This document shows, one piece after another, positions 15,521 to 35,753 of a DNA stretch of 64,000 bases. The notes beneath the pieces are model-generated. The model did not search any database. It worked only from the letters and a program-made list of their open reading frames with translations, and was not told where the DNA came from. Source of the DNA: a virus. Its lineage: Duplodnaviria > Caudoviricetes. Location of the stretch: positions 44,321-108,320 of IMG/VR virus record IMGVR_UViG_3300006467_000454, one strand, 5' to 3'. Both the position numbers and the translations under genes were made by a program. The stretch's first letter is position 1; every line of letters begins with the position of its first letter.

Positions 15521-16015
15521 ATGGCAAACAAAAGTAGGCACATTCCTATTTCGGAATATTATTCTATTTTGCAATTAGAATATATATCGTTTAGGCTTCG
15601 TGAAGCTATTTATCAAAAGAAGTACTCAGAGAAGTACAAACCTTATTGTGAAGGTAAAAAAGAAAAGATTGAAAGTATTGCATTGCAAAATTGTTTACCT
15701 TCAATTTTTAATTCGGAAACCTCAAGAGAAAAATATTTGGGGAAGTTTTTCAATGAATTTGGATTGCCCAATTTTACCTATAAGAATGAAGATTCTAAGG
15801 AGAAAATGGGTAAGTGGGATAAGTATTATTATTTTTCTCCTGGGACTTCCGTTAAATTTAAGGTAGAAGATAGCAAGGATATCCAAATCGGGACTATCGT
15901 TTCTAATTTGATTGAGGAAGAATCAGTTGTTGTAAAAACAATTGAAAAAGAAGAATTCACGTTGGCATATAGCAAAGTTGCCCGTATGCTCGTGGAAAGT
16001 TTGTTTAATTTTTAA
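15521..16015 (+). CDS. Hypothetical protein
   Basis: ORF tightly packed between primase and dUTPase. Confidence 0.55.
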   Translation: MANKSRHIPISEYYSILQLEYISFRLREAIYQKKYSEKYKPYCEGKKEKIESIALQNCLPSIFNSETSREKYLGKFFNEFGLPNFTYKNEDSKEKMGKWDKYYYFSPGTSVKFKVEDSKDIQIGTIVSNLIEEESVVVKTIEKEEFTLAYSKVARMLVESLFNF

Positions 16016-16025
16016 TTTTTGGAAA

Positions 16026-16541
16026 ATGTTAAATGTAAAAATCAAGCCTGAAAGAATCAATTTTCAGAAACCAGTAAAAGGAAGTAAAGATGCAGCGTGT
16101 TGGGATGTTTATGCTTCCAAAATTGAAGAAAAGCCAGATGGGTTGGTGATTGTTTATTTAGGGTTCAGTACTGAAATCCCTGTTGGCTATAAGGGTGTTA
16201 TCGTAGCCCGTTCCAATATCACTAAATATGGCTGGTGTATTCCTAATGCTCCTGGACAAATTGATCCAGATTTCCGCAATGAGTGGCAAGTTAGATTCCG
16301 CAGATTGCCTATGTTCCGTGAAAAAGAATTAGTGGGGAATCCACGTTGTAAAAACGGGGAAGGGGAATTGTATTCCAAAACTCAAGATTTCTTAGAGATG
16401 CATTCGTTCCCTTATAAGCAAGGTGAAAGGGTTGCCCAAATCTACTTTGAAAAAGAAGAAGAAGTTGTTTGGCAAGAAGTTAAAGAAACCAATGATACCG
16501 AGCGTGGCTTGGGTGGCTTTGAAAGCACTGGGAGATCATAA
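16026..16541 (+). CDS. dut: Trimeric dUTPase
   Basis: All five motifs present: AACWDV, ARSN, GQIDPDFRNE, GERVAQ, RGLGGFESTG; ATG at 16026. Confidence 0.9.
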   Translation: MLNVKIKPERINFQKPVKGSKDAACWDVYASKIEEKPDGLVIVYLGFSTEIPVGYKGVIVARSNITKYGWCIPNAPGQIDPDFRNEWQVRFRRLPMFREKELVGNPRCKNGEGELYSKTQDFLEMHSFPYKQGERVAQIYFEKEEEVVWQEVKETNDTERGLGGFESTGRS

Positions 16542-16544
16542 TCT

Positions 16545-16628
16545 TATTTAAATTCATTATAAATAGGTGTTCTAGAGGGGGAAATCTCCCCTTTTATTTT
16601 GTAGATAAAAATCTAAAGATTAATTTTG
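16545..16628 (+). promoter_or_regulatory. 21-bp palindrome plus Bacteroidota-type promoter heading the modification/DnaE operon
   Basis: TATTTA-N9-TAAATA at 16545-16565; TTTG 16598-16601, N19, TAATTTTG 16621-16628. Confidence 0.75.
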
Positions 16629-16669: not shown

Positions 16670-17644
16670 ATGGGCGTAAGCGTAAAAGATGTATTGAAAA
16701 GAAAATACAAGAAACTGAAAGATGATGAGATCATCGATATGTTATCAACTGAGTTGAAAGAAGAAGAACGTGAAGTTCTTTTGGAACTTGCTAAGAAAAG
16801 GAAAATCATTAATGATATTCCGGAATCTACTGAGGAAGTTGAAGAAATTCCTTATGAAAAACCTGACGCTAAATTGGTGAAAAAGGCTGTGAAAATTTTT
16901 GATGATTTTGCCGAAAATCAGGAAACTGATCTTTACGGTAAGGCAGCGGAGATCATTAAAGATCGTGAAATTTCTGAACTTTCTAAGCATGAAGTTGAAG
17001 CGATTATTGCTTTGAAACCTGCTACAAAACGTAAAAAGGCTCCAGCAAAGGCAAAAACTGAAAAACCTGAAAAAGCGGAGAAAAGTGAAAAGGCTGCTAA
17101 ATCCGGAAAGGGAAAAGGCAAGGAGAAAGAAAAGGTTGAAGAGCCTAAAGCTGAAGAAAAAGTAGAAAAGCCTGAAAAAACGGAAAAGAAAGAAAAAGCT
17201 GTTTCGTTTAAAGCCTTTAAGGATCTTGCCATGAAAGCGGAAAACGTGAACGATTTTTATGAAGCCGTTAAGGAAATGAAAGATGTTCCTAAGAAAACTG
17301 TCGATAAGTTTTATAAGAAGTACGGTCAGGATGGTAAATTGGCGGAGTTTGAAGCCCTTAAAGTTTTCTATGATGAAACTATGGAAAAGAAAGAAAAGGC
17401 TAAAACAAGCAGCAAGCGTAAGCCATTTGTGGAGCTTGATGAATCTGCTGAGGTTAAAGGTTTGAAACTTGGTTCAAAAGTTTCTTTCAAAGCTCACCAC
17501 CTTTCTAAAAAAGCAGGTGAACAAATTAAGGGTAAAGTTACCCGTATCATCATTGCTAATCGTGATAGCAAGGAGTACATCAAAATTGAAACCAAAAATG
17601 ATGGTGAATTCCACAAGAGAGCGAATTCTGTAGAAATATTATAA
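16670..17644 (+). CDS. Lys/Glu-rich hypothetical protein, possibly nucleic-acid binding
   Basis: Central EKPEKAEK low-complexity tract; small beta-rich C-terminal domain. Confidence 0.55.
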   Translation: MGVSVKDVLKRKYKKLKDDEIIDMLSTELKEEEREVLLELAKKRKIINDIPESTEEVEEIPYEKPDAKLVKKAVKIFDDFAENQETDLYGKAAEIIKDREISELSKHEVEAIIALKPATKRKKAPAKAKTEKPEKAEKSEKAAKSGKGKGKEKEKVEEPKAEEKVEKPEKTEKKEKAVSFKAFKDLAMKAENVNDFYEAVKEMKDVPKKTVDKFYKKYGQDGKLAEFEALKVFYDETMEKKEKAKTSSKRKPFVELDESAEVKGLKLGSKVSFKAHHLSKKAGEQIKGKVTRIIIANRDSKEYIKIETKNDGEFHKRANSVEIL

Positions 17645-17653
17645 AAAGTTTCT

Positions 17654-18715
17654 ATGTATAATAATCGTATTGTCATTGATTTAGATGACACAATATCCGT
17701 TACATTTGATAGGGACTGGGAAAATTCAACCCCAGTCCTTCCTGTCATTGGAAAAATTAATCAACTGTATGATTTAGGTTGGGAGATTTGCATTGTTACT
17801 GCAAGGGGTCAATTAAGTTGTAAAGGAGATTCAAAAAAAGCCGATGATAAATACCGTACTCAAATTGAAACTTGGCTCAAGAAACACGGAGTCAAATACA
17901 CTTCTTTATCATTTGAGAAAGTATTAGCCACATATTATGTTGATGATAAATCATTGTCACCTGAGGATTTCACAAAATTGAATGTTGTGGGATTACAGGG
18001 GGGATTGTCTGGCGCCAAAATTGAAAAGGTGGGGGATAAGGTTTACAAGACACATAAAAACTCTCTTCAGGCTGTTAAATGGTATTCCATAATTGAAAAC
18101 TATGATATTCGTATTCCTAAAATACATAGTATTATTGGGGATACTATTTGCATGGAATATATAGAGGATTGCCCAATAAAGCAACCCCATTTCCCTAGCC
18201 TTACAAAAGCCATTGATATTTTTTCTGGGATTAAGGTGAAAGGGGTTCCGTTTGATAATTATATTGAGCGTATCCATAAGCATGCGGAATATCATGGTGA
18301 GTTTTCTGAGATAGTTGACGAATTGGTTTTACATTCAAAATTTTATGAGGAGTTTTCTTCATTTTGTCATGGGGATTTTTCTATTGATAACATTTTAATC
18401 GATAGGAAAGGTTCCCATTATTTGATTGACCCAATTTATGAAGAAGATTCATGGAGTTCATGGCTTTTGGATGTTTCTAAATTGGCTCATTCTTATAGAA
18501 GGTATGATAAAGTTGATACCCTTTGGAATATTTATGAGCATTATAGGCATAAGGTAGACTGGAATCATCTTAAACTATTAGAAATAACTCAATGGATCAG
18601 GGTGCTAAAATACCTTAAAGACCAGAGGGAGATAAACAGATTTAGAAACACAATAGACGTTATGATGTATGAATATTTTGGTAGAAATAGAAAACCTAAA
18701 ACTAAATGGTTCTAA
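17654..18715 (+). CDS. HAD phosphatase (capsule-biosynthesis type) fused to an APH/choline-kinase-like phosphotransferase
   Basis: HAD motifs IDLDDT, VTARG, K, YVDDK; kinase motifs GGLSGA..K, CHGDFSIDNIL, LIDP, DVSKL. Confidence 0.82.
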   Translation: MYNNRIVIDLDDTISVTFDRDWENSTPVLPVIGKINQLYDLGWEICIVTARGQLSCKGDSKKADDKYRTQIETWLKKHGVKYTSLSFEKVLATYYVDDKSLSPEDFTKLNVVGLQGGLSGAKIEKVGDKVYKTHKNSLQAVKWYSIIENYDIRIPKIHSIIGDTICMEYIEDCPIKQPHFPSLTKAIDIFSGIKVKGVPFDNYIERIHKHAEYHGEFSEIVDELVLHSKFYEEFSSFCHGDFSIDNILIDRKGSHYLIDPIYEEDSWSSWLLDVSKLAHSYRRYDKVDTLWNIYEHYRHKVDWNHLKLLEITQWIRVLKYLKDQREINRFRNTIDVMMYEYFGRNRKPKTKWF

Positions 18716-19106
18716 AATAGGCTTCACTGCAAGCTCTTTTGATTTGATGCATCCTGGACATATCGCAATGTTATCAGAAGCAAAATCAAAATGTGATTAC
18801 TTGATAGTGGGGTTGTTGACAGACCCAACAATTTCTAGGTACGGTTCAAAAAATAAGCCTGTCCAAACTACTTTTGAAAGGTTCATTCAGGCTCAAGCTT
18901 TAGGCTGTGTTGATTTCATAATCCCATTTGATACCGAAGAAGATTTGGAGCAAATGTTGAAATTGATAATGCCTGACATTCGGTTCGTTGGTGAGGAGTA
19001 TAAAGATAAAGATCACACGGGTAAAAATATCGATGGGATTGAAATCTTTTACAATAAGCGAAAGCATAATTATAGTTCTTCAGAATTAAGGGGGAGGTTA
19101 AAATGA
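18669..19106 (+). CDS. HxGH nucleotidyltransferase (TagD / HldE-C cytidylyltransferase family)
   Basis: SSFDLMHPGH, KP......ER and C-terminal RKHNYSSSELR. Confidence 0.88.
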   Translation: MNILVEIENLKLNGSKIGFTASSFDLMHPGHIAMLSEAKSKCDYLIVGLLTDPTISRYGSKNKPVQTTFERFIQAQALGCVDFIIPFDTEEDLEQMLKLIMPDIRFVGEEYKDKDHTGKNIDGIEIFYNKRKHNYSSSELRGRLK

Positions 19107-21616
19107 AAAGATATAAAATAGCATATATGGTGCATCGTGGGGATACCAATGGAGGATTCCCACAGCACACGGAAACTATTATCCATGCCTTAAAGGAATT
19201 AGGGCATCAGGTTAAATTCTTCTATCTGGATTATTGCGTTGGGGATAAAGCTTCTTTTATGGCTAAGAAAGTAGAACTTTTCCAGAATGGAGAGCTGATG
19301 CGTCAGGGTCATGAATTGCAAATCACCAAAGGGATAGGGACAGGGGAGTTTTACGATTCTGAAAAGGGTTGGTTTTGTCCAGTAACTCCATATAAAAATA
19401 TGGATGATAAAAAGAAGCTGAAAGCAGAGTTGGAAGAATACGACGCTGTATTTTGGCATACTCCATTTTGGTTCAAACAAAAGCCTACATTAATGGATAC
19501 GGATTGGCCAATGTTATTGGATTTGGAAAACCCAGTAAATATTGGAATGGTTCACGATGCTAATTTAAGGGCAAATGGGGCGTGGCAGTATTTTATAAGC
19601 AAATACTTTGACAAAATAATTACAGTCCATTTTGCTTCCTACAATTCAGCCTCAGTGCTACCTGTAAAACGTACCTTGATATTCAATCCTCAGGATTTAT
19701 CAAAAGTGGATGAATCCCATACTAATTTCAAGAATATCAAGAAAACGGGGAAGATATTCTCACTCCAGAATTGGAAGGGTAGCAAGCATGTTGATGATTT
19801 GATTCGTGCAGTACCTTACTTTTCAAAGAAGGTGAAAACAGTCGTTGCAGGGGATGGGATTGAAGCCCGTTATATGTTTGGCTCCAAGGAAAAGATGAAA
19901 CCTCAGTATTATTGTACTAAGGCTAAGGATCCGGATTTGCCTGAAAAATTAGAGGGTAAATTGACAATTGCTGAAAGGGCTCAGGAAACTGGACGATTTG
20001 AAAAATTGTTTTGGCTTGATTCAGATAATCGTGATAAACAAATGTCTGAAGCTGCTTTCTTTATTGATACAGCTTGGTATAGTGTGAATAAAGAATTGGG
20101 AAGCCACTTTTCTAGAACGTTAATTGAAGCCATGATGGCAGGTTGTGTACCTATCGCCAGAAACTTTGGATTAAGTGATAATGCGGAAGGGTTGGGTGAG
20201 TTATTTAAATCCAATATAAATTACATAATGATCCCCCATGATGCAACCCCTGCTGAATTCGCTGAAATTGTTAACAATGCGTTCAAAATGGACAAGAAAG
20301 AGTACAAGCGTATTGTAAAAAACAATTATAAACTCTTGGAAAATTTTTGTATGCTTAATGTAGCAAAGCAATATATCAAGTTAATAGAAGATAAAAAGAC
20401 TGGATTCTTTGATAAATATGAAGTTGGTGAACCGACTGAGGAGTTTATCAAAAAGGCTGAATTGCAATGGTTCGGTACTGGAGATAAAAGGACTTTTAAC
20501 TTCAAAAAAGAAGAAAGCATGGTTGAAGAAACCCCAGAGGATAAAAAGCCTAAAAAAGAAAAGGCTGAAAAACCTAAAAATGAAGAGGGCAAAAAGGAAA
20601 AGAAGTCAAAGTCCCCAAAACCAAAAGGGAAATGTGAGTTCACCCCTAATGAGAATTTCAAATATTATTTCTATTGGATTAGTGAGCGAATGAAAATATT
20701 CTGGGAACGGAATAAGGGTGAGGAAGCTCCTTGGACTGAGGATAAGATTTTGAATGATCATAAATTTACCAACGTTTATCGCTGCTTGGATCGTACAAGC
20801 CAATATTTGATAAAGCATATTATCAACGATACGAAGAAACGTTCCAAAGAAGAATTGTTTTGGAGAATATTATTATTCAAACATTTCAATTCTCCTGATA
20901 CTTGGATAGCCTTAGAAAAGAAATTCGGGGATATTACCTTAGAAACTAAGGTGAAGAAAATTATTAAGTTCCTTGAAAAGTACAAGAATGAAGGGAATAC
21001 CATTTACAGTAATGCTTATATGATGACAGCTTCCTTTATGAAGAAGCCAGAATTCATGAAAAAGTATAAAATGGGGGATTCAAGGAGTAAGCATGAAGCC
21101 TATCTTAAAATGCTTTGGAATGTCTTTATTGAGGAAGGGCTTGCAAAGAAAATTATTAAAAGTAAATCTTTGGAAGAGGTACAAGGTAAATTTAAGGAGG
21201 TTATTACTATTGGTGATTTCTTAGCGATGCAATATACCATTGATATCAATTACAGTAAGTTGATTGATTTTAGTGAAAACGATTTTATCGTTGCAGGTCC
21301 TGGGGCTATACGTGGAATTGACCGTACATTCGATATTGAGAGTGCTCCAGATTATCAAAAGATCATCAAGTGGGTTCACAAGAACTTTGATAAGCTGGCT
21401 AACGAATACGGGTATAAATTTAAGCCCCTCCCAAAACGTGCCTTGACTTTAATTGATTTGCAGAATTGCTTCTGTGAAACGGATAAATATTTGAGAGGGC
21501 GTGGTATCGATAATCCTAAAAAGGAAGTCGGTGGAAAACGCATCAAACAAGTATTCACTCAAAACACAGATAAAATTGAATATGTACTTCCCGAGAAGTG
21601 GGAAATAAAATTGTAA
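19103..21616 (+). CDS. GT-B glycosyltransferase fused to an aGPT-Pplase1 / 5-hmdU-DNA-kinase-helical domain
   Basis: N-part: GG.PQH, K..KHVDDLIRA, FSRTLIEAMMAGCVPI (GT-B). K-rich linker about 20510-20630. C-part: WISER...PWT.D.IL..HKFTNVYR.LDR, AGPGA.RG, QNCFCETDKY. Confidence 0.8.
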   Translation: MKRYKIAYMVHRGDTNGGFPQHTETIIHALKELGHQVKFFYLDYCVGDKASFMAKKVELFQNGELMRQGHELQITKGIGTGEFYDSEKGWFCPVTPYKNMDDKKKLKAELEEYDAVFWHTPFWFKQKPTLMDTDWPMLLDLENPVNIGMVHDANLRANGAWQYFISKYFDKIITVHFASYNSASVLPVKRTLIFNPQDLSKVDESHTNFKNIKKTGKIFSLQNWKGSKHVDDLIRAVPYFSKKVKTVVAGDGIEARYMFGSKEKMKPQYYCTKAKDPDLPEKLEGKLTIAERAQETGRFEKLFWLDSDNRDKQMSEAAFFIDTAWYSVNKELGSHFSRTLIEAMMAGCVPIARNFGLSDNAEGLGELFKSNINYIMIPHDATPAEFAEIVNNAFKMDKKEYKRIVKNNYKLLENFCMLNVAKQYIKLIEDKKTGFFDKYEVGEPTEEFIKKAELQWFGTGDKRTFNFKKEESMVEETPEDKKPKKEKAEKPKNEEGKKEKKSKSPKPKGKCEFTPNENFKYYFYWISERMKIFWERNKGEEAPWTEDKILNDHKFTNVYRCLDRTSQYLIKHIINDTKKRSKEELFWRILLFKHFNSPDTWIALEKKFGDITLETKVKKIIKFLEKYKNEGNTIYSNAYMMTASFMKKPEFMKKYKMGDSRSKHEAYLKMLWNVFIEEGLAKKIIKSKSLEEVQGKFKEVITIGDFLAMQYTIDINYSKLIDFSENDFIVAGPGAIRGIDRTFDIESAPDYQKIIKWVHKNFDKLANEYGYKFKPLPKRALTLIDLQNCFCETDKYLRGRGIDNPKKEVGGKRIKQVFTQNTDKIEYVLPEKWEIKL

Positions 21617-21620
21617 TTAT

Positions 21621-22646
21621 ATGTATATTTTTGAAAACTTGAATTCGGCTTTAGTTGGGATGTGTTCTAACTTACTGGAGTATGGGGAAACAAGGGAAAC
21701 AAGGGGGCATCATTGCGTTGAGATACCTTATCCCGTTTTAATCTGTATTAACAACCCGACTGACAGGTATGTGACTATCCCTGAAAGAAAATGGAATAAG
21801 GTCTTGCCGTTTGCGGAAAGCCTTTGGTTGGCGTTGGGGTTAAATGATTTGGATGAATTGCCAGGAAATTATGTGAAGAATTTGTATAATTTTTCAGATA
21901 ATGGTAGAACGTGGCGTGCAGGTTATGGTCCGAGAATGAGATACTTTAGTGGGCATGGTTCTGATTATGATATTAGTAAACGTGATGAGGCTAAAGTTTA
22001 CTCTGGGGATATTAACCATACTGACCAGTTGAAGTTTGTTATTGATACTTTAAATAGGGATATCAATAGCCGACAAGCTATCATTACAATCCATGACCCT
22101 GCAAAGGATGACTTTGATCGTGATGGTGGGCTAAAGGTTACAAAAGACCAACCTTGCACACGTAGCATCCATTTCCAAGTAAATACCAAGGGGGAATTGG
22201 ATTGCATCGTTGACATCCGTTCTAACGATGTTTTGTGGGGATTCTCAGCGGTTAACGTCATTAACTTTGCTATCATGCAAGAATACGTTGCTAATATTAT
22301 GGGGCTGCCTATTGGTAAATATTATCATTTTGCCCATAATTTCCATTATTATGAAGATTTTGAAAGTAGAGTAGTTGAGCTGAGAGATGTTGGGTTTTCT
22401 GACCCTAATTACCATAAAGAAAGTGTTAAGTTCCAATATAAGGATCCGATTGGGGACCTTGAGAACTTTGATTTCCTATTGGATTTATTGTTTGATTATG
22501 AGAAATCACTTCGTGAGGGATATTCGTTGCCTTGTGATTTAGGTAATGATATGTTCAATGACTGGGCTAAAGTGTTCTATAACTATTGGACTAAGCAGCC
22601 AGTGTATTTTGAAAATCCACATTTAAATAAATTGTTTAATATTTAA
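21621..22646 (+). CDS. Thymidylate-synthase-family enzyme, probable dUMP hydroxymethylase
   Basis: YGPR, SRQA, KDQPCT (catalytic Cys), RSNDVLWGFSAVN (Asn at the specificity position = uracil substrate), H.YE; context of aGPT-Pplase1 domain and dNMP kinase. Confidence 0.78.
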   Translation: MYIFENLNSALVGMCSNLLEYGETRETRGHHCVEIPYPVLICINNPTDRYVTIPERKWNKVLPFAESLWLALGLNDLDELPGNYVKNLYNFSDNGRTWRAGYGPRMRYFSGHGSDYDISKRDEAKVYSGDINHTDQLKFVIDTLNRDINSRQAIITIHDPAKDDFDRDGGLKVTKDQPCTRSIHFQVNTKGELDCIVDIRSNDVLWGFSAVNVINFAIMQEYVANIMGLPIGKYYHFAHNFHYYEDFESRVVELRDVGFSDPNYHKESVKFQYKDPIGDLENFDFLLDLLFDYEKSLREGYSLPCDLGNDMFNDWAKVFYNYWTKQPVYFENPHLNKLFNI

Positions 22647-22653
22647 TTCGTAA

Positions 22654-23325
22654 ATGGCATTAAATGACTATCGATATAAGTATATTTATGCAACATTTAA
22701 TTTAGTGAATGGTAAATTTTATGTCGGTAGCCATATGTCCAATAAAGATCCTAATTCTGATAAATACCTTGGCTCTGGTGTTAGGATTAAATACGCCATA
22801 AGGAAATATGGTAGGGTTAATTTCAAAAGGGAAATTATTGAATTTTACCACGGAGAAGATATTGAAGAATTTAGGGATTTAGAAACTTATTGGATAAATT
22901 CTTTAGAAGCCGTAACATTAGGGTATAATCTAAAAGAATCAGCTAATTCCCCTTATACTGAAGGTAAAAGTGTTGGGGATAAAATAGCAAAAACATTGAG
23001 GGGTGTCCCAAAATCAGAATCCCATAAACGGAACCTTAGTAAAAGTAAACAAGGTTCAAAGCCATGGAATTTAGGGGTCCCATGTAGGGAAGAAGTGAAA
23101 AAGAAGATACAAGCCACTTCTAAGAAAAGGGTCATCCCTAGGGAACATATTGAGAAAATGCATAAAGCTGTTACAGGTGTTCCGAAGAGTAAAAGGTTCA
23201 AGAAAATTATATCTGATTCTTGGAAGAATAGGGAGGAAATAAAATGCCCTCATTGTGGGTTAAAAAGTAAAAGTTTAGGTAACATGAATCGTTACCATTT
23301 TAATAATTGTAAATCAAAATCGTAA
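22654..23325 (+). mobile_element. Free-standing GIY-YIG homing endonuclease with NUMOD3-like repeats
   Basis: YIY...NLVNGKFYVG, YLGSG, KYG..NF.RE, E..WI, GYN; repeated G.PKSE.HK..LS modules. Confidence 0.85.
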
Positions 23326-23329
23326 AATT

Positions 23330-23845
23330 ATGCTAAGCATTGGTTATTATCGTAAAATGAAAAGGGTTAAAAGGCTCGGGCTATCATTCATCCATAGGGA
23401 GTATTCGCTATTGGAGCACCAATATATGGTAGGTATGTTGTTTAAGTATTTTGCATCAAAGGAAAATGTCCCTTATGATATTCACGTTTGGGATTTAGTT
23501 CTTCACCACGATGCATTGGAAGTCGAAACAACAGATTTAATTTCAACCGTGAAAAAACTTTCCAAGAAAACTCAAGAAGCTTGGGAAGTCATTGAGGAGG
23601 AAGTTATCAACAAACATTTCCAGTTAGAAAAATACAGTGATAAAAGATTTAAGGAAGGCATGACACCCCTCCAGCATAAGCTGTTTAAAGCTTGTGATTA
23701 TCTTGACTTGTGGATTTTTATCAAGGAAGAAGTAGCCATCGGAAACAAATCAAAAGATATTTTGGAAATCCTAGGGCGGTGTGACGAAATGATAGGCACG
23801 GATTTCCTACATATCCGTAAATTCATGGAGGGATTTAAATGCTAA
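23330..23845 (+). CDS. HD-domain nucleotide phosphohydrolase (YfbR-like)
   Basis: SLLEH, LHHDALE, KACDYLD. Confidence 0.8.
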   Translation: MLSIGYYRKMKRVKRLGLSFIHREYSLLEHQYMVGMLFKYFASKENVPYDIHVWDLVLHHDALEVETTDLISTVKKLSKKTQEAWEVIEEEVINKHFQLEKYSDKRFKEGMTPLQHKLFKACDYLDLWIFIKEEVAIGNKSKDILEILGRCDEMIGTDFLHIRKFMEGFKC

Positions 23846-24468
23846 ATGTATGGGTATATTTAGGAGTAAATGGGTCTGGAAAAGACTTTCAGGCTAAATT
23901 GAAATCTGAGGAGTTAAAGGTTTTACCTTTTGATTTTAGTGATGGAGTTCGGGAATACACGTTTGCTTTCCTGGGTTGGACTCCCCCCAATAAAGATGAT
24001 TATGAGGCTTGGAAATCAGGTCAATCAACTATGTTTATGCCAGAGGGGCTGAGTGCCTATTCCATAAAAATGCGCAAGGGGCGTGAGTTCTTAGATAATG
24101 TTGGCAAAAAGATGAGGGATTTTGACCCTGATTTTTGGGCAAAACATACCGTAAGTAAAGCCACTGAATATTATCAACAGGGGGTGGAGAATATTATCTT
24201 TTCTTCTTGTAGGTATATAAATGAAGCAAAAGCAATTTTAGATTTCGTTTATAGTGCAGGTGGGGATGATGCAAATGTTAATTTCATATTCTGTGATTAC
24301 CAATCAACGAAATATGATGACACTTACAGGGAATATCAAGAATTAGCCTTAATCCTTAGAGATATGGGGGCTGGTGACCTTGAGAAAGTTAACGAAAAAA
24401 TTTATTATTTAATTGCCAATTATGAAAAAGTTGCTCAAGTTTTTAGAAGCGAATCGGATAGAGCATAA
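23839..24468 (+). CDS. Deoxynucleoside monophosphate kinase
   Basis: GVNGSGKD P-loop, FSD.VRE, RE.L..VG..MR..DPDFW and CRY.NE, as in phage dNMP kinases. Confidence 0.75.
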   Translation: MLNVWVYLGVNGSGKDFQAKLKSEELKVLPFDFSDGVREYTFAFLGWTPPNKDDYEAWKSGQSTMFMPEGLSAYSIKMRKGREFLDNVGKKMRDFDPDFWAKHTVSKATEYYQQGVENIIFSSCRYINEAKAILDFVYSAGGDDANVNFIFCDYQSTKYDDTYREYQELALILRDMGAGDLEKVNEKIYYLIANYEKVAQVFRSESDRA

Positions 24469-27400
24469 ACAGCATAACAAGAAGATGGTGATTATCGGTG
24501 GGGAGAAATTTGAACTGATAAAACCAGACGATGATGGGAAGATTTTCACCCCTTCTTTTACACTGATGGCTGATTCAACTAAGGCTGAAAATTATGTGTT
24601 TTCATTTGGTGGCAATTACTACTTTACACCCGAAGGCACGGAAGATGACCCCAAGCTTAACAACCTACGCTATTACGGGAAATGTTCTGAAAAACAAAAG
24701 AATAAATCCTTCTTAGGTGTTAGGGGTGGATTTGAGATCCTTAACGGCTCAGGGCAATATAAAGATTGGGTTAAGAAAGCTAAATTTTTAGGTCTTGAAA
24801 CTTTAGGTATTTGTGAGAAAAATACTTTGGCAGGTGCCTTGAAGTTCCAGAGTGCCTGTAAAAGTGGTGGAATTGAATCTATTATTGGTGAAACTGTTAC
24901 TGTATTCCGGAAATCAGAAGATTTAAGGTATGATTTGAAATTATACGTTAAAAATGAAAAGGGGTATCGGAATCTCTTACTTATAAATAAAAAAATCAAT
25001 GTTGATGAATTGTCATTTATAAAGGAAGAGGATCTATTCAAAATGTTGGATGGGTTATACATTGTCCTTGACCCAAAATCATTGCCATATGAAAAGGTAT
25101 TCCCAATTGATCTTGATAATGATGTGTTTTACCAAATTGACCCTGTAATATGGGAAGACAATGAAGTTGATAAAACTTATTTGGAAAACCTAAAGCAATA
25201 TGTGCTTGAAAAAAGATTTAAGCCAATTGCAATTTGGGATGCTTTCTATTTAGAAAAGGATCATAATCACATCAAACAAATCCTAAACGGGATAGCGAAG
25301 AAATTCGAATATATTTCAAAGGATCAATGGTTCAAGACTTGGGGGGAATATGAAAGCGGTTGCTCAGATATTTTCTCTGAAGAGCGTATTGGGATACTGA
25401 AGAAAGCCAAGAAGAATTTGGAATTAGTTGCGAGCGTTTGCAAGAATTTTAATATACCTACTGGGGAACGTCATTTGCCTAAATACAAAATGACCAAAAA
25501 AGAGGCTAAAAAGTATAAAACAAATAAGGATCTTTTCTGGGGATTGGTTGAAGATGGGTTGAAGCGTAAAACCCCAAAAGGTAAAAAGAAAGAATACCTA
25601 AAGCGTGTTGAAATAGAATGGGATGTTATTGAATATGGGGATGTAATGGATTATTTCTTAATTCTATATGATATCATCAAGTGGTGCCGCAAAAAGAATA
25701 TACTCGTGGGTATTGGTCGTGGTTCTGCTGGAGGTTCTTTAGTATCTTATCTATTGGATATTACTCAGCTTGACCCAATTGAATACGGGTTACTTTTTGA
25801 GAGATTTTTGAATAAAGGTCGTATTGAAAAGTCACTACCCGATATTGATGTGGATTTCCCTGCTAAGAAACGTGGGCTGATTAAAGCCTATATTGAGAAA
25901 CGATACGGGCATGATCAGGTTTGTTCAGTAGGCACTTACACCGCATTACAGTTGAGGGCTGCCTTAAAGGATATTGCGAGGCAGTATTCAATCCCGTTTG
26001 ATGAAACAAATAGGGTTACTGCTTATCTTGAAGGTTGCAAATCACTGGAAGATATTTTCCGGAAATCAGCTTCGGATAAATTTGTTTACACTTTTGTTAG
26101 CAAATATCCGTATGTGATAAACGATATCCCATTAGTTTTAGGGCAACCAAAAGCTAAATCAATCCACGCTTGTGCCATGATGGTATTCCCGAAAGAGAAA
26201 ACCATGTACGAGTGGGCTCCTGTTAGGGAACAGGACGGACAAATAGTAAGTGAGTGGGAAGGTAATGAGTTGGATGAAGCAGGATTCCTTAAAGAGGATA
26301 TTTTGGGGGTTAAACAGTTAGATAAATATGAGGATATTTTGGAATCCATCAAAAAGGTGGAAGGCAAAGAAATTGACTTGTATTCATTAAAGCTTAATCA
26401 CGATAAATGCTATAAGTATTTCCAGAAGGGGTGGAATGGTGATGTATTCCACTTTGGTAGTCGGGGATTGACAGGGTACTGTAAGGAATTACTCCCTGAA
26501 GATATTAATGATTTGATTGCTGGAATCTCCCTTTATCGTCCTGGAGCGATGGAGAATAACTTCCATAACGAATATGTCCTACGTAAAAATGGGGATCGTG
26601 AGGTAGAATATTTTGTCGGTTCTGAGGAAATCCTTAAAGATACTTATGGGGTATTTGTTTATCAGGAGCAGATTATGAAGCTTTGTCAGGTTTTAGGTGG
26701 ATTATCCCTTGTAGAAGCGGATGATGTACGTAAAGCGATGGTAAAGAAAAAGTATGAAGCACTCCAGCAGTATAAAGTTAGATTTATCCCACATTATGTG
26801 AAAGAATTTGGGGTATCTAAACAATATGCCGAAGGAGTTTGGGAGGCTATTGATAAAGCTGCAACTTATCTGTTCAATAAATCCCATGCATCTGCTTATT
26901 CCATTACAGGATACTGGGGGCAATACCTCAAAGTATTTTACCCTGTACACTATTGGAAAACAGCTATTAATTATGCTGATGAAGATCAATTCCCTCATTA
27001 CATTAATGAAGTCCATAAAACAGGTGATATAGAAATCAAGCCACCTGATATAAATGAATCCGGAGAAGGGGTAACTGCTGATTTCAAAGCAAATAAAATT
27101 TACTGGTCAATAGGTGGTATCAAAAATGTTGGGGGAACAGCCCTTCATCAAATAATTGAAGACCGAAAAAAGAGCGGTGAATACTTTGATTTGAAGGAAT
27201 TCTATTCACGCCATAAGTTTACTGGGACTAAGGTAAACAAGCGTACAATCGAATGCTTAATTTTATCTGGTGCTTTTGATCAGGTTTGTGATATTGATTT
27301 ACCTAAAAGGAGATTTAAATTAATTGAAGAATTTAGGGAGATTGGTAAGATCAAAATTGATGATGAGAAAGATCTTTTCTCTGCCAATAAATCTATGTTA

Positions 27401-27811
27401 AAAGATAACCAATGGTGGGTATTCCAACAGAAGTTGTTATCCGGAATTGCTTATTTTGATTATAAGGATCTTTGTGGTAGGTTAGAAGTGGAAGGGTATA
27501 AATTCATGAACCCAGAAAAGTTCATGAGGGAAAACTCAGCTGGCAAAGATGCCAGAATTGGGGGGTACATTTCCGAAATTAAGCTACGTAAGAATCAGAA
27601 AGGGCAATGGGCTTCCATAGTTCTGGAAAGTAATTACGAATTCATTAGGGTTCAGATTTGGCCAGAGCAATTCTCTAGGTTAGAGGGTAGGATTCACTCT
27701 AAATCTAAGGCTGTTATTGTTTTAAATGGCAAAATTAAGTTTGATGAAAAGTATTCTAAGGAAAATAATCTACAAACCACCGAAGATACTGAATTCTTAG
27801 TTTTAGAATAG
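24422..27811 (+). CDS. dnaE: DNA polymerase III alpha subunit
   Basis: GRGSAGGSLV.YLL.IT, LFERFLN, PDIDVDF, K.DILG, YRPG, VYQEQIM, FNKSH, PPDIN.S; C-terminal OB fold. Confidence 0.95.
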   Translation: MKKLLKFLEANRIEHKQHNKKMVIIGGEKFELIKPDDDGKIFTPSFTLMADSTKAENYVFSFGGNYYFTPEGTEDDPKLNNLRYYGKCSEKQKNKSFLGVRGGFEILNGSGQYKDWVKKAKFLGLETLGICEKNTLAGALKFQSACKSGGIESIIGETVTVFRKSEDLRYDLKLYVKNEKGYRNLLLINKKINVDELSFIKEEDLFKMLDGLYIVLDPKSLPYEKVFPIDLDNDVFYQIDPVIWEDNEVDKTYLENLKQYVLEKRFKPIAIWDAFYLEKDHNHIKQILNGIAKKFEYISKDQWFKTWGEYESGCSDIFSEERIGILKKAKKNLELVASVCKNFNIPTGERHLPKYKMTKKEAKKYKTNKDLFWGLVEDGLKRKTPKGKKKEYLKRVEIEWDVIEYGDVMDYFLILYDIIKWCRKKNILVGIGRGSAGGSLVSYLLDITQLDPIEYGLLFERFLNKGRIEKSLPDIDVDFPAKKRGLIKAYIEKRYGHDQVCSVGTYTALQLRAALKDIARQYSIPFDETNRVTAYLEGCKSLEDIFRKSASDKFVYTFVSKYPYVINDIPLVLGQPKAKSIHACAMMVFPKEKTMYEWAPVREQDGQIVSEWEGNELDEAGFLKEDILGVKQLDKYEDILESIKKVEGKEIDLYSLKLNHDKCYKYFQKGWNGDVFHFGSRGLTGYCKELLPEDINDLIAGISLYRPGAMENNFHNEYVLRKNGDREVEYFVGSEEILKDTYGVFVYQEQIMKLCQVLGGLSLVEADDVRKAMVKKKYEALQQYKVRFIPHYVKEFGVSKQYAEGVWEAIDKAATYLFNKSHASAYSITGYWGQYLKVFYPVHYWKTAINYADEDQFPHYINEVHKTGDIEIKPPDINESGEGVTADFKANKIYWSIGGIKNVGGTALHQIIEDRKKSGEYFDLKEFYSRHKFTGTKVNKRTIECLILSGAFDQVCDIDLPKRRFKLIEEFREIGKIKIDDEKDLFSANKSMLKDNQWWVFQQKLLSGIAYFDYKDLCGRLEVEGYKFMNPEKFMRENSAGKDARIGGYISEIKLRKNQKGQWASIVLESNYEFIRVQIWPEQFSRLEGRIHSKSKAVIVLNGKIKFDEKYSKENNLQTTEDTEFLVLE

Positions 27812-28492: not shown

Positions 28493-29617
28493 ATGGGAAA
28501 AGGTAAAGACAAAAAGGAAAAGAAAAAATTCCAAGGGGCTAAACGCTCTGCACAAAAAGCAGTTGTTGCTGATGCCGAAAGTAAGAATATCCACATTGGT
28601 GGAGGGGGAGGCTATGTTTCCTTCCATAGTGTTGATGAGGGTAAGAACATTTTTAGAATGGCACCGCCCCATAATCCTGACCACCCTAGTTATGAAGCTT
28701 GCCGAACCACTATGCTGGATTGTGAAGTTGAAGTTCGTGACAAGGAAGGTAATCCAACGGGGGAAAAGGAAATTAAGCGTAAAAAGATTTACGTTGCTAC
28801 TCAGCACTTAGATGGAGCCGAAATCGACCCAACTGAACTTTACATTAAGTATGTGAGCGAATATGCTAATGAAGCATACGATGATAAAGAAGAAAGGAAG
28901 AAATACTTGAAGCACATTACTGGGTATAAAGGTCCGGATAAGAAATGGGTTTGGGGTATTATCCCAGGAACTTCTTATGTTGGTTATGCTTGGAAAAAGG
29001 GGGTTCTTGGTAGAATTGACCTTTGGAAGAAATGGACTGACGAAATGGAGAAGGAAGCAGCCAATTTAGATAGTGATGATACTATCATTGTAGATCCATT
29101 CTCTGATCCAGAAGAAGGGTATCCATTAAGCATTGAAAAGGCTAAAAATGATAAGGGTAAATTTGAATACACTGTCAAGGCTGTAATTCCTGGAAAGAAA
29201 GAATCTTGGGAGGATTTCTTTGAAAGTAATGCACTTACTGATAAAATGTCAGAAGAATTGGCAGCGGTGGATTCATTGCATGATATGTACACCAATAATT
29301 ACACCATGCGTGATTTCGATTTAGCTTTGGATGGGTTGAAACGTTTTGATAAAAAGCATGGCTATGATGTCTTTAAAAATGAAGATTTCCTTGAAGAGCT
29401 TGCTGAATTCAAAAAGACCGTACCTGTGAAGGATGATTCTGAAAAGTCTGATTCTGAAAAGTCTGGTAAAAAAGACAAAAAAGAAAAGAAGGACAAAAAA
29501 GATAAATCTGAAAAAGAGGGGAAATCTGAGGAGTCTGAAAAGTCTGAAAAGAAAGACAAAAAGGGCAAAAAGGATAAAAAAGAAAAGAAAGACAAGAAGA
29601 ATAAGAAAGATAAATAA
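28493..29617 (+). CDS. Probable single-stranded DNA-binding protein (gp32-like) with K/D/E-rich tail
   Basis: G.N.FR..PP, DPFSDPEEGY.L.I.K, L..L..MY; position in the recombination block. Confidence 0.6.
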   Translation: MGKGKDKKEKKKFQGAKRSAQKAVVADAESKNIHIGGGGGYVSFHSVDEGKNIFRMAPPHNPDHPSYEACRTTMLDCEVEVRDKEGNPTGEKEIKRKKIYVATQHLDGAEIDPTELYIKYVSEYANEAYDDKEERKKYLKHITGYKGPDKKWVWGIIPGTSYVGYAWKKGVLGRIDLWKKWTDEMEKEAANLDSDDTIIVDPFSDPEEGYPLSIEKAKNDKGKFEYTVKAVIPGKKESWEDFFESNALTDKMSEELAAVDSLHDMYTNNYTMRDFDLALDGLKRFDKKHGYDVFKNEDFLEELAEFKKTVPVKDDSEKSDSEKSGKKDKKEKKDKKDKSEKEGKSEESEKSEKKDKKGKKDKKEKKDKKNKKDK

Positions 29618-29648
29618 TTCCTCTAGTTTTAATTTTGTTCCAATTCGT

Positions 29649-29677
29649 GAGGGGGGAGGGTGACCTCCCTCTATTTT
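29649..29677 (+). terminator. Intrinsic terminator
   Basis: GGGGGAGG-GTGA-CCTCCCTC hairpin followed by TATTTT. Confidence 0.6.
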
Positions 29678-29689
29678 AAATTGTAAAAT

Positions 29690-30727
29690 ATGTCAGCATT
29701 AACGATAATATCAACAGATTGGCATTTAAAACCCGAAAATCTAGAAGAGATTATAGATTTAGTCCGCCAAAAATGCAAGCTAGCAAAAAAGCTAGGGATT
29801 AAAGATATATTCTGTCTCGGTGATGTTTTTGATAGCCGTATTGCCCAAAGGCAATCTGTGTTGAAAGCATTTGAGCGTATCCTCGGGATAATTGAGGAAT
29901 ACGGGTTGGTATTCCATTTGATCCCAGGAAATCACGACAAAACGGTTTACCCTTCCATGGACTCATTTCTAGATGCGTTCAAAACATACCCTTGCCTAAG
30001 ATTATATCGCAAACACTCAATAGTGAAATTAGGTAAATTCAATTTCCATTTAATCCCATTCTTTGAAGAAAAAGTTTGGTTAGAAATATTCCACGGAATT
30101 GAAAAGGGTGGTAAAAATGATATCCTATTATCACACATGGCTGTAGAAGGCTCAAGGAACAATGATGGTTCTTTAGTTTCCTCAGGATTAACTCCTAAAA
30201 TGTTTGAAAATTGGCTCATGGTGCTGTTAGGGCATTATCATGATGAACAACAAATTGGAAAGAATATTTTCCATATCCCTTCCATAAAGCAAAATAATTA
30301 TGGGGAGGACGAAAACAAGGGATTTACTGTCCTAAATAGTGATGGGAGCTATGAAGTATTCAAAAGTAATTACAAAGCCTTTAAACGTCTTAAAATTAAC
30401 ATTGACGAAACTCCACAAAAGGAGCTTGAAAAATTAGTAAAAACTTATTCTAAAAATGAGGATAGAATTAGATTTGAATTTACAGGGGATTCCACTAAGC
30501 TGAAAGCCTTAGATAAATCTAAATTCAATAAACATGGTATTGAAATCAAGACAAAAGTAAAAGAAATTGAAGAATCCATTGTAGAATGTGAGAAGCAGGA
30601 TGTCAAAATCCATAACCAGTCTACAATTATGAGTGAATTCAAAAAGTATCATGAAATCAAATCTGATTTTAACTTAAAACTCGGGACTAAATATTTAAAA
30701 GAGCATTTCAATGGCGAAGAAAAATAA
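29690..30727 (+). CDS. Mre11/SbcD-like metallophosphoesterase nuclease
   Basis: TDWH, LGDVFD, GNHD, SH, GHYH. Confidence 0.88.
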
Positions 30728-31733
30728 GAAAAAAGATAAAGGTGGACAAAGTTATACCGAAGATTTAAAACGAGCCATCAGTGAGATCGATAAAAGATTC
30801 GGGGAAGGTTCTATTATGAATCTCCAAGAAGGGGCAGCAAATGTAGCCCGTGTGTCCAGTGGGTCAATTGCTTTGGATATAGCACTTGGTGGGGGATTCC
30901 CTAAAGGTAGAATTATTGAAATATACGGTCCGGAATCATCAGGGAAAACAACCCTAGCATTACACCTGACTAAAGAGGTGCAGAAAGCAGGGGGAGTAGC
31001 AGCATTGATTGATGTTGAAAATGCTTTTGACCCTGAATATGCTGAAGACGGAATTGGGGTGGATATTTCTCCAGATAAATTCTTGATATCTCAACCAGAA
31101 TGTGGTGAAGATGCTTTGGAAATTACTAATACTTTAATTGAATCAGGAGGGATTGATCTTGCCATTATTGACTCGGTAGCTGCATTGACCCCTAGGGCAG
31201 AATTAGATGGGGACTTTGGTGAATCCAAAATGGGGTTGCAAGCCCGTATGATGTCTCAGGCTATGCGTAAATTGGTAAGTAAAATTAAACAGTCAGAATG
31301 TACGGTTATTTTCATCAACCAATTACGTGATAAAATTGGGGTAATGTTTGGTAATCCGGAAACAACTACTGGTGGGAATGCTTTGAAATTCTATGCTTCT
31401 GTACGTTTAGATATTCGTAGGGTAGGGCAAATCAAAGATGGTGAAGAAGTTATTGGGAACCGTACCCGTGTAAAAGTTGTTAAAAATAAAGTTGCACCAC
31501 CTTTCCGGAAAGCTGAATTTGATATTCGATACGGGGAAGGGATTGATTATATTAAAGAGATAATGGATTTTGCGGTGGAATTTGATATAATCAAAAAGTC
31601 AGGCTCTTGGTTTTCATACGATGAAACTAAACTGGGGCAAGGTGAAGCAAACGTTCGTAATTTACTGGAAGATAATTTTGAGCTTCTAGAAGAGATTGAA
31701 AAGAAAGTTATCAAAAAATTGAATAAATCGTAA
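30711..31733 (+). CDS. recA: RecA recombinase
   Basis: [55 protein letters not shown]. Confidence 0.97.
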
Positions 31734-31734
31734 G

Positions 31735-33729: not shown

Positions 33730-33730
33730 C

Positions 33731-33961
33731 ATGGCTAAACCAAAACCAATAATTGCGATTACCATCCCCCACTATATGGCTCAGGAGGGTGTTGATAAGA
33801 TCTCAAAAAGTGTTAAAGAAACAGTGAAGGAAGAATATCATGTATTTATCATTACGAATAACAGTGATGAAATAAACTTCCAAGTCTTTTATGAAAAAGA
33901 CTTCAACGAGGTAAAGTACAAAGAGTTGAAAACAATAATTAAGGAATTATGCAAAAGGTAA
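33731..33961 (+). CDS. Hypothetical protein
   Basis: ATG directly after the SbcC stop. Confidence 0.5.
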   Translation: MAKPKPIIAITIPHYMAQEGVDKISKSVKETVKEEYHVFIITNNSDEINFQVFYEKDFNEVKYKELKTIIKELCKR

Positions 33962-35316: not shown

Positions 35317-35319
35317 TAT

Positions 35320-35664: not shown

Positions 35665-35720
35665 AATCATTATAAATAATGGGTTTTCTATTGTTTTGTA
35701 ATCTAAATGGGTTAATTTTG
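35658..35720 (+). promoter_or_regulatory. 21-bp palindrome plus promoter
   Basis: TATTTA-N9-TAAATA at 35658-35678; ATTG 35690-35693, N19, TAATTTTG 35713-35720. Confidence 0.65.
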
Positions 35721-35753
35721 TACAAAAATAAATTCATTTTAAAACAAATTTCT

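Follow-up and report, generated by a model that had tools for sequence, protein, structure and literature searches.

The known thymidine hypermodifications of phages attach amines or amino acids by a kinase-plus-transferase route, and the known phage DNA glycosylations are on cytosine derivatives; for SP-15-like phages, whose thymidines bear sugars, no pathway has yet been worked out. Here, we describe an operon at positions 16670-27811 of the window, a 64,000-nucleotide stretch of the IMG/VR virus record IMGVR_UViG_3300006467_000454 (Duplodnaviria; Caudoviricetes), which encodes a HAD-kinase fusion, a nucleotidyltransferase, a glycosyltransferase (GT) fused to a PF18723 domain, a thymidylate synthase (TS) homolog, and a replicative DNA polymerase. 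It is well supported that this gene arrangement is real, not due to chance, and that it represents a thymidine hypermodification operon that includes DNA glycosylation. More specifically, we favor, with modest confidence, a two-stage scheme in which 5-hydroxymethyluracil (5hmU) replaces T and a phage-made nucleoside diphosphate (NDP)-sugar is then added on the DNA.

In phages M6, ViI, phiW-14, and SP10, hypermodification involves a dUMP hydroxymethylase, a 5hmU DNA kinase (5-HMUDK), and an aGPT-Pplase or AADT enzyme (PMC5889632, PMC8989533). The window shares with these systems a putative dUMP hydroxymethylase of the same clade, a deoxynucleoside monophosphate (dNMP) kinase, and a member of the aGPT-Pplase family, here of clade 1 (PF18723), in which a Cys-Glu pair is conserved, and modification of the polymer after replication is expected here as well. 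It differs from them in having no detected P-loop 5hmU DNA kinase and no pyridoxal phosphate (PLP), radical-SAM, or flavin tailoring enzymes. SP10-type proteins carry a kinase ahead of PF18723, whereas the window has a glycosyltransferase in that position and adds an NDP-sugar supply line. Moreover, Pplase activity has been demonstrated for clade 2 only, whereas the window protein belongs to clade 1.

Phages RB69, DLP3, and HY126, whose DNA contains arabinosyl-5-hydroxycytosine (PMC13326640), have in common with the window a TS homolog leading to a hydroxylated pyrimidine nucleotide, a 1xpj-like HAD phosphatase homologous to the window HAD domain, an APH-like anomeric kinase, a nucleotidyltransferase, and GT4-like transferases acting on DNA. 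However, their modified base is C rather than U/T, and their TS homolog is a flavin hydroxylase (D169N), whereas that of the window appears to be a hydroxymethylase. Their kinase is fused to a MurU-like nucleotidyltransferase (AfhE), whereas the window kinase is fused to the HAD domain and its nucleotidyltransferase has the cytidylyltransferase fold (PF01467). They also encode an arabinose-5-phosphate isomerase and several GTs without PF18723; the window has no isomerase, one GT, and PF18723. The T4 alpha- and beta-glucosyltransferases resemble the window GT in being GT-B enzymes that glycosylate a hydroxymethyl pyrimidine in duplex DNA, with a fold match to the alpha-glucosyltransferase (AGT) and a profile link to an AGT-family protein, but they use host UDP-glucose and a 5-hydroxymethylcytosine acceptor, need no accessory domain, and show marginal pairwise similarity to the window GT.

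The product predicted for the operon, 5hmU with an O-linked sugar in the DNA, is of the same class as base J (beta-D-glucosyl-5hmU) in kinetoplastids. There, JBP dioxygenases and the GT-A enzyme JGT produce base J post-replicatively at a small fraction of T, whereas in the window 5hmU is predicted from the TS homolog to be made as a nucleotide, the transferase is of the GT-B type, and replacement is probably genome-wide. Phages SP-15, YerA41, and Carin-5, whose bases carry a linker, phosphate, and sugars (PMC5977210, PMC12686479, PMC13697223), have in common with the proposed scheme glycosylated T-derived bases, nucleotide-sugar enzymes and GTs near the polymerase, and, in some members, aGPT-Pplase genes. 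These phages have a family-A polymerase fused to uracil-DNA glycosylase, large multi-GT clusters, and DNA that resists ordinary sequencing, whereas the window phage has DnaE and one GT and was assembled from ordinary metagenomes. The genes and domains on which our comparison is based are as follows, with the evidence for each assignment in parentheses.

15942-16541, + strand: dUTPase/dCTP-deaminase-family enzyme (PF00692, E 1.4e-11; phrog_135, E 1.5e-28; TIGR00576)
17654-18715, + strand: 353-amino-acid (aa) protein, residues 1-115, HAD-IIIA phosphatase; residues 116-353, small-molecule kinase of APH/RIO-like and choline-kinase-like type (TIGR01689; 1xpj; AlphaFold2 [AF2] fold)
18669-19106, + strand: cytidylyltransferase-fold nucleotidyltransferase, 145 aa, HxGH motif HPGH (PF01467, E 5e-12)
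19103-21616, + strand: 837-aa fusion of Glycos_transf_1 and PF18723, whole open reading frame (ORF) (Pfam)
19103-20512, + strand: GT-B (GT4-like, retaining-type) glycosyltransferase domain, residues 1-470 (PF00534, E 3e-7; AF2 fold)
20513-20653, + strand: Lys/Glu/Pro-rich interdomain linker, residues 471-517 (translation)
20654-21616, + strand: PF18723 domain (aGPT-Pplase clade 1, "HMUDK_hel"), residues 518-837 (PF18723, E 1e-85)
21621-22646, + strand: predicted dUMP hydroxymethylase, a TS homolog (PF00303, E 2e-20; tree; diagnostic residues)
23330-23845, + strand: HD-domain YfbR-like 5'-deoxynucleotidase (PF12917, E 3e-15)
23839-24468, + strand: P-loop dNMP-kinase-like protein, 209 aa (phrog_139, E 4e-13)
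24413-27811, + strand: DnaE-type replicative DNA polymerase with PHP, alpha, finger, and HhH domains (PF07733, E 4e-64; PF17657; PF14579; PF02811)

When we compared the TS homolog with 50,697 phage records by tblastn, the top-scoring matches came from Bacillus phages SP8, Goe16, and CP-51, ViI-like Ackermannviridae, M6-like Pseudomonas phages, and Brevibacterium phage LuckyBarnes; T4-type td genes matched only at E ~1e-6. In a maximum-likelihood tree, the window enzyme and its metagenomic relatives fall inside the SP8/ViI-like/M6-like group, with E. coli ThyA, phage td, and T4 gp42 on the opposite side (branch support, 86/88). In SP8 DNA, 5-hydroxymethyldeoxyuridine (5hmdU) completely replaces T (PMC5889632), and the DNA of ViI and M6 contains 5hmdU-derived bases (PMC8989533). 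According to published residue criteria, N177D indicates cytosine substrates, L143D/E is associated with water access and hydroxymethylation, and D169N is found in 5-hydroxycytosine synthases (PMC13326640). Our alignment places Asp at the E. coli Leu143 position (motif KDQPC), where it would admit water, and shows that Asp169 is retained (motif RSND) and that the ThyA-type C terminus is absent. The uracil-type Asn pointed out in the initial annotation does align with E. coli N177. Genome searches detected neither a second TS homolog nor ThyX. Given its clade and the residues at positions 143, 169, and 177, the TS homolog reads as a dUMP hydroxymethylase making 5hmdUMP, in agreement with the 5hmU route that had been assigned to it from the sequence.

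Neighboring genes could supply the remaining steps of base replacement. The dUTPase, whose homologs in related loci also match PF22769 (DCD), is the likely source of dUMP, which the TS homolog would convert to 5-hydroxymethyl-dUMP. The 209-aa kinase is proposed to take 5hmdUMP to 5hmdUDP and, with host kinases, to provide the triphosphate. Its nearest Atlas clusters bear PF21448 (DNMK, T4 gp1-type); it shows no similarity to the kinase domain that is joined to PF18723 in 5hmU DNA kinases, and sequence searches found no match in PDB or in cultured phages. The HD nucleotidase, whose gene always adjoins that of the TS homolog in the related loci examined, is proposed to strip dTMP or other canonical nucleotides from the pool, depleting the canonical competitor, so that the phage DnaE would insert 5hmU instead of T. 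As a prediction, this pre-replication stage is largely shown by homology.

The GT half of the 837-aa protein was modeled with AF2 using 21 homologs (pLDDT, 93.5; pTM, 0.92). When the model was compared with known structures by Foldseek and VIA-align, it was closest to the retaining GT4-type GT-B enzymes BshA, HepE, PimA, TarM, and MshA (Z, 24 to 26.5), and the longest alignment (346 residues; Z, 24.2) was with T4 alpha-glucosyltransferase, which is bound to HMU-DNA in the structure compared. The GGxxxH loop of GT4 enzymes, K225/K228, and E342 are conserved, and the strong fold matches are all users of NDP-sugars. We also considered a TagF-like phosphotransferase and set this reading aside, since those strong matches are all NDP-sugar GT4/AGT enzymes. 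At the profile level, the GT matches a 477-aa protein of a T4-like jumbo contig (hhalign probability, 91%; E 9e-7; 359 columns), which itself scores above the Pfam threshold for the DNA alpha-glucosyltransferase family and lies beside a HAD-kinase and nucleotidyltransferase pair. This relationship is significant by profile comparison alone; BLASTP of the GT domain against the AGT-like GTs of jumbo contigs and the "beta glucosyl transferase" of a Maribacter phage gave marginal or no matches. The GT domain had no tblastn match in cultured phages at E 1e-3, and the family is known so far from metagenomes only. No second GT1 gene was detected in the genome. Taken together, the PF18723 fusion, the synteny with the TS homolog, and the T4-AGT-like fold point to DNA as the glycosyl acceptor.

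PF18723, which is single copy in the genome, is the former aGPT-Pplase1 family, since renamed HMUDK_hel in Pfam; the older name persists in one phage annotation of a matching gene. Clade 1 of aGPT-Pplase includes phiW-14 gp72, the C-terminal half of SP10 gp186, and ViI gp160 (PMC5889632). A database search returned >1,200 matches, most commonly as a stand-alone protein of ~330 aa; in other matches a thymidylate-kinase-like P-loop domain precedes it, and fusions with radical-SAM or MazG domains are rarer. Among proteins of 460 to 1465 aa, only the window's own protein joins a GT to PF18723; this fused ORF recurs in an independent Logan contig (run SRR5579849). The neighborhoods of PF18723 genes in Vibrio and Nodularia phages contain no GT module. 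No P-loop is seen in the translation of the window domain. An alignment of 156 PF18723 sequences shows C791 conserved at 99% and E792 at 98%, along with ~45 further near-invariant positions. The Cys791-Glu792 pair is kept in 12 of the 13 GT-linked homologs, very divergent ones included, the exception being the homolog in locus L007, in which Tyr replaces Cys. In clade 2 enzymes, a Cys and its neighboring Glu are essential. In their mechanism, C6 undergoes Michael addition, 5-phosphomethyl-dU loses its phosphate, and the exocyclic methylene is attacked by an amine or hydroxyl, the nucleophile of ViI gp247 being a hydroxyl (PMC8989533). SP10 gp186 still phosphorylates DNA without its PF18723 half, and therefore PF18723 is more than a part of a kinase. 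By analogy with these enzymes, we consider PF18723 to be probably a catalytic module directed at 5hmU-DNA.

Upstream of the fusion, the HAD-kinase and nucleotidyltransferase could supply the sugar donor. The HAD half matches TIGR01689, "capsule biosynthesis phosphatase" (E 4e-16), and PDB 1xpj (E 3e-12), and it matches IME08 orf42 with an hhalign probability of 99.2% (E 8e-20); the IME08 record describes orf42 as similar to RB69 orf051c, and the gene is located in an RB69-type cluster. The 1xpj-like enzymes AfhF, RB69 gp51, and DLP3 gp81 convert arabinofuranose 1,5-bisphosphate to the 1-phosphate, within a route in which an APH-like kinase acts at C1, followed by the AfhF phosphatase and a nucleotidyltransferase that yields UDP-arabinofuranose for GT4-like DNA arabinosyltransferases (PMC13326640). 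The AF2 model of the HAD-kinase (pLDDT, 91) places the kinase half closest to LicA, with further matches to APH(2''), fructosamine kinase, and choline/ethanolamine kinases. Across 44 homologs, the HAD motif DxDxT and the kinase motifs HGDxxxxN...IDP do not vary, and the remaining HAD motifs are intact as well. We propose that the fusion converts a sugar phosphate to a 1,n-bisphosphate and then to the sugar 1-phosphate, and that the nucleotidyltransferase converts this sugar 1-phosphate (or an alcohol phosphate) to an NDP-activated donor. The latter enzyme scores 84 bits against rfaE_dom_II (heptose-1-phosphate adenylyltransferase) in NCBIfam and 45 bits against g3p cytidylyltransferase (TagD-type), whereas its best match in PDB is ethanolamine-phosphate cytidylyltransferase (ECT; E 3e-16), followed by 5x9q (E 5e-12) and TagD (E 2e-7). 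No match to an SIS (arabinose-5-phosphate) isomerase was found in the complete genome, although all 14 control genomes gave one, and the starting sugar phosphate would therefore be host derived. By analogy, then, we read the HAD, kinase, and nucleotidyltransferase as a counterpart of UDP-arabinose/ADP-heptose logic with a host sugar phosphate as feed; an activated alcohol as donor is a minority alternative.

We next asked how far this gene set extends beyond the window. Megablast of the operon against the 50,697 phage records gave no match. However, 11 loci retrieved from IMG/VR with a GT profile and scanned with custom hidden Markov models (HMMs) all carry adjacent GT, HAD-kinase, and nucleotidyltransferase genes (11/11), with GT identity down to 33% and with three or more gene orders. 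Ten of these loci have PF18723 and eight have the TS homolog; the remaining loci end too early or, in L013, contain none within the 10-kb flank. In relatives with a stand-alone GT, the order is dUTPase, HAD-kinase, nucleotidyltransferase, GT, 169-aa ORF, PF18723, 149-aa ORF, TS homolog, HD, kinase, and DnaE; at the position of the linker, related phages have a stop codon and most also have an extra gene. The PF18723 gene of L007 overlaps the end of the GT gene, which is a step towards fusion. This dUTPase-to-DnaE order was seen in one phage that is present in many samples, on contigs up to 96 kb, and a 147-kb contig contains a related gene set in a different order. DnaE is split in some relatives (L002 and L008 to L011). 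The TS homologs of the related loci form two separate dUMP-hydroxymethylase subclades in the tree, and therefore the decoration module has moved between backbones. The module occurs widely among uncultured phages.

The HAD-kinase and nucleotidyltransferase pair is also found where PF18723 is missing: its neighbors in T4-like jumbo contigs are AGT-family and other glycosyltransferases, and in one contig that has a TS homolog its neighbor is UDP-galactopyranose mutase. This distribution fits a general sugar-supply cassette for DNA glycosylation. Two of the T4-like jumbo contigs, L027 (388 kb) and L028 (316 kb), both carry the pair with an AGT-family GT and a GT25; L027 additionally encodes a GT10 fucosyltransferase, a sulfotransferase, and a methyltransferase, and L028 encodes a radical-SAM/SPASM enzyme. 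These gene sets suggest elaborate, possibly sulfated, DNA glycans. Among cultured phages, the gut phage AB434P2 of Agathobaculum (L032, 1314-8307) has a row consisting of HAD-kinase, nucleotidyltransferase, a 328-aa unknown, dUMP hydroxymethylase (annotated in the record as deoxyuridylate hydroxymethyltransferase), a 361-aa unknown, and DnaE. Neither GT nor PF18723 was detected there by custom HMMs or Pfam, and AB434P2 may carry out a related modification via different transferases. In Maribacter phage Molly_3 (L026, 4180-8939), a TS homolog is immediately preceded by genes for a UDP-glucose/GDP-mannose dehydrogenase, an epimerase/dehydratase, and the "beta glucosyl transferase" of 473 aa. That homolog belongs to the dUMP-hydroxymethylase clade, making Molly_3 a candidate for another cultured Bacteroidota phage with sugar-modified 5hmU.

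The genome sequence itself carries a pattern that bears on the modified base. Across the whole genome, 80 of the 81 CCGG sites lie within TCCGGA, a hexamer that is 6.2-fold over-represented (examples in the window are at 1326, 4244, 16819, 19930, and 24906), and GGCC occurs 24 times, 18 of them as TGGCCA, where 110 to 150 sites are expected. All 60 CCWGG sites have the TCCTGG form on one strand, and CGCG, GTATAC, GGGCCC, CCCGGG, and ACCGGT are entirely absent. Genome searches found no encoded C5 or N4/N6 methyltransferases. Sites composed only of G and C hold no modified T, and their survival almost solely with T flanking on both strands is what would be expected if a bulky group on T shields them from host restriction. 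The site pattern is thus consistent with a bulky T modification and suggests that the modification has shaped the entire genome sequence.

How, then, would the sugar reach the DNA? In the second stage of the scheme that we favor, which we infer to be post-replicative, the HAD-phosphatase/anomeric-kinase fusion and the nucleotidyltransferase would convert a host sugar phosphate to an NDP-sugar, in parallel with the UDP-arabinofuranose route (sugar-n-P to sugar-1,n-bisP to sugar-1-P to NDP-sugar). On the DNA, the PF18723 half of the 837-aa protein would engage 5hmU, and the GT4/AGT-like half would transfer the sugar. The most likely product would be O-glycosylated 5hmU, similar to base J and possibly bearing a pentofuranose, and it would serve to shield the genome against host nucleases. 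In the main variant, the Cys-Glu chemistry of PF18723 would swap the hydroxyl for another nucleophile and the sugar would be placed on that group. Among the sub-models, direct O-glycosylation with PF18723 as a base handler is our first choice; the others are addition of a nucleophile by PF18723 before the GT acts and glycosylation as a priming step in place of phosphorylation. The initial annotation had proposed that 5hmU is decorated with an NDP-activated sugar or polyol made by the two upstream enzymes. This is partly supported, by the clade and residues of the TS homolog, the 99.2% HAD match, the LicA/APH-like kinase fold, the PF18723 fusion, the synteny, and the T4-AGT-like GT, and the sugar would sit either directly on 5hmU or on a group added by PF18723. 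Its description of the pathway as new was overstated in that every enzyme class is known from phage DNA hypermodification (PMC8989533, PMC13326640), although the combination and the fusion are new: the literature searched contains no phage with this gene set and none with directly glycosylated 5hmU.

Several observations weigh against the scheme as stated. The CCGG footprint is specific to this genome and seen just partly in relatives. The kinase half gave no significant match to the C-terminal domain of AfhE-like proteins (hhalign probability, 5.6%), and the nucleotidyltransferase is about equally similar to heptose-1-phosphate adenylyltransferase and to the CDP-alcohol enzymes ECT and TagD, so that the donor could be an activated alcohol. 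Conservation of the Cys-Glu pair in the GT-linked homologs argues that PF18723 is an enzyme and does more than bind DNA, and therefore simple direct O-glycosylation may be incomplete. At the same time, an HMM built from the kinase domains of 34 kinase-PF18723 fusions hit only RecA (E 0.002) in the 108-kb genome, although a very divergent or non-P-loop kinase could escape such a search. Without a P-loop 5hmU DNA kinase, the aGPT-Pplase reaction on 5-phosphomethyl-dU has no obvious substrate. One way to accommodate these facts is that the GT took the place of the 5hmU DNA kinase ahead of PF18723, so that glycosylation primes the C5-methylene chemistry or PF18723 uses unphosphorylated 5hmU, giving a glycosylated, doubly processed thymidine genome-wide; we put this forward tentatively, as a possibility well short of even. 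We consider it unlikely, and slightly more so, that the order is linker then sugar, with PF18723 attacking C6 of an activated 5hmU, forming the exocyclic methylene, and adding a hydroxyl or amine nucleophile that the GT then glycosylates, an outline like that of SP-15, YerA41, and Carin-5. The near-invariance of Cys791-Glu792 and the ~45 other positions, kept even in divergent GT-linked members, speaks for such chemistry, as do the precedents of the essential Cys and Glu in clade 2 and the hydroxyl nucleophile of ViI gp247 (PMC8989533) and the presence of PF18723 with the GT in T-type loci, in contrast to its absence from T4-like loci with these sugar-supply genes. However, neither a 5hmU DNA kinase nor any other obvious enzyme for activation is apparent, the operon contains no PLP, radical-SAM, flavin, or other tailoring genes, and the GT-adjacent L007 homolog has Tyr in place of the Cys.

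The nature of the donor, the target of the GT, and the product of the TS homolog each allow a further alternative to glycosylated 5hmU. Ethanolamine, glycerol, or a similar alcohol or polyol could be activated with CDP or ADP in Kennedy style by the choline-kinase-like domain and the ECT/TagD-like nucleotidyltransferase, with the GT-B enzyme moving a phospho-alcohol or alcohol onto 5hmU. In fold, the kinase is indeed closest to the choline kinase LicA and next to choline/ethanolamine kinases, and the best PDB sequence match of the nucleotidyltransferase is ECT, with TagD also matching; yet the GT domain keeps the GT4 GGxxxH loop and resembles GT4/AGT enzymes that use NDP-sugars, not phosphotransferases of the TagF type, the HAD domain fused to the kinase has a sugar-bisphosphate phosphatase as a homolog, heptose-1-phosphate adenylyltransferase is the top NCBIfam score of the nucleotidyltransferase, and in jumbo phages this pair is found together with AGT-family and other sugar transferases. 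We therefore judge an alcohol donor improbable. A TS homolog that makes dTMP or, as in RB69-type phages, a 5-hydroxy pyrimidine, which would change the acceptor base, strikes us as more improbable still: phage TS homologs are hydroxylases in some lineages (PMC13326640) and annotation pipelines label all such enzymes thymidylate synthase, but here Asp169 is kept, unlike in the hydroxylases with their D169N, position 143 has the Asp of hydroxymethylases instead of Leu, Asn177 is the uracil-type residue, the protein lacks the C-terminal segment that true TS has, and the enzyme sits in a clade from phages with 5hmU-derived DNA bases. We give the least credence of all to the idea that the GT and sugar genes act away from DNA, on host surface glycans for superinfection exclusion or on a phage protein, leaving DNA with 5hmU only or with an amino-acid-type modification. 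GT4 enzymes do function mainly in glycan synthesis, and a role in changing host capsules has been proposed for the glycosyltransferases of phages of Bacteroides (PMC8008677). Against this, the GT is covalently joined to a 5hmU-DNA-directed domain of a family known solely from 5hmU-DNA enzymes (PMC5889632, PMC8989533), the related loci all place the GT in a nucleotide-metabolism/replication module by the dUMP hydroxymethylase, the GT is related to DNA alpha-glucosyltransferases by profile and fold, and the genome has neither other glycan-synthesis genes nor a second GT1.

The genes of this proposed glycosylation pathway are embedded in a compact transcription unit. The 108,320-bp virus record is complete, with direct terminal repeats at its ends; the window is its right-hand 64 kb, and nearly all genes are on the + strand. 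The remaining features of the operon region are as follows.

16573-16596, + strand: terminator-like hairpin that closes the upstream unit (10-bp stem, then T run)
16598-16628, + strand: promoter at the operon head, TTTG-N19-TAnnTTTG (pattern enriched in the window)
16670-17644, + strand: Lys/Glu (K/E)-rich 324-aa protein, operon gene 1 (without family match)
22654-23325, + strand: GIY-YIG/NUMOD3 homing endonuclease (phrog_314, E 2e-30; NUMOD3 and GIY-YIG Pfam matches)

The dUTPase gene is separated from the first ORF of the operon by a 128-nt spacer that contains the hairpin followed by the promoter, and from 17644 to 27811 the genes are spaced or overlap by no more than 9 nt, except for overlaps of 47 and 56 nt. 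The promoter at 16598-16628 reads TTTG-N19-TAATTTTG. The pattern TTTG-N19-TAnnTTTG has 11 copies on the + strand of the window, compared with 3.4 expected and a maximum of 8 in 100 shuffles; the copies are mostly intergenic, ahead of genes, and several have a TTTGTAGATAAAA box in common. Family members with the form TTTG(T/A)(A/T)GATAAAA...TAnnTTTG lie on the + strand at 16598, 39261, 42563, 55761, 56529, 57811, 59418, and 61298, among others, and TCCGGA is present inside two copies. We take the pattern to have the form of a Bacteroidota promoter, and the host of the phage is probably a member of the Bacteroidota. A generic sigma-70 reading was dropped, as a sigma-70 scan found no enrichment (42 sites compared with 44 expected) and the Bacteroidota-type pattern fits instead. 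These data uphold the claim of a single promoter ahead of a packed gene run with a dUTPase just upstream. The genes listed in the initial annotation were all found on the + strand at or near their given coordinates, but the first ORF of the interval proved to encode the K/E-rich protein and not the HAD-kinase, and the homing endonuclease between the TS homolog and HD genes had been overlooked.

The K/E-rich protein had no Pfam, PHROG, or NCBIfam match, its Atlas scores were all <=0.77, and the 11 IMG/VR loci, which were scanned for it, gave no hit. It is mostly disordered, and its model is poor apart from a small C-terminal beta domain (approximately residues 255-324); its low-complexity stretch is similar to the linker of the GT-PF18723 fusion. 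The homing endonuclease is not at the corresponding site in the related loci examined, where the HD gene directly follows that of the TS homolog. It is a selfish insertion outside the pathway. Similar homing endonucleases adjoin the HAD-kinase gene in the jumbo-phage contigs L027 and L028. Downstream, positions 28493-47907 of the window hold a replication/recombination module encoding a Metallophos (SbcD-like) protein, RecA, a 664-aa SbcC-like ORF without Pfam match, NAD-dependent DNA ligase, DUF932, a SNF2 helicase, and a UvrD helicase. With DnaE, RecA, the SbcCD-like proteins, and superfamily 1 and 2 helicases, the replication module resembles that of the "Gratiaviridae" phages of Bacteroides (PMC8008677).

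The enzyme classes encoded here are all known from phage DNA modification; it is their combination, the fusion, and the missing kinase that set the operon apart and make it a good experimental target. If our reading is correct, the operon would provide a compact, testable set of five or six genes for placing a sugar on a 5hmU-derived base, with the fusion tying transfer to a 5hmU-directed domain. It would also provide the first function for the clade 1 aGPT-Pplase family, with its >1,200 homologs in one search, as no clade 1 activity is reported in the literature searched. Such modifications determine escape from restriction, CRISPR, and glycosylase defenses and are a source of enzymes for 5hmU labeling.

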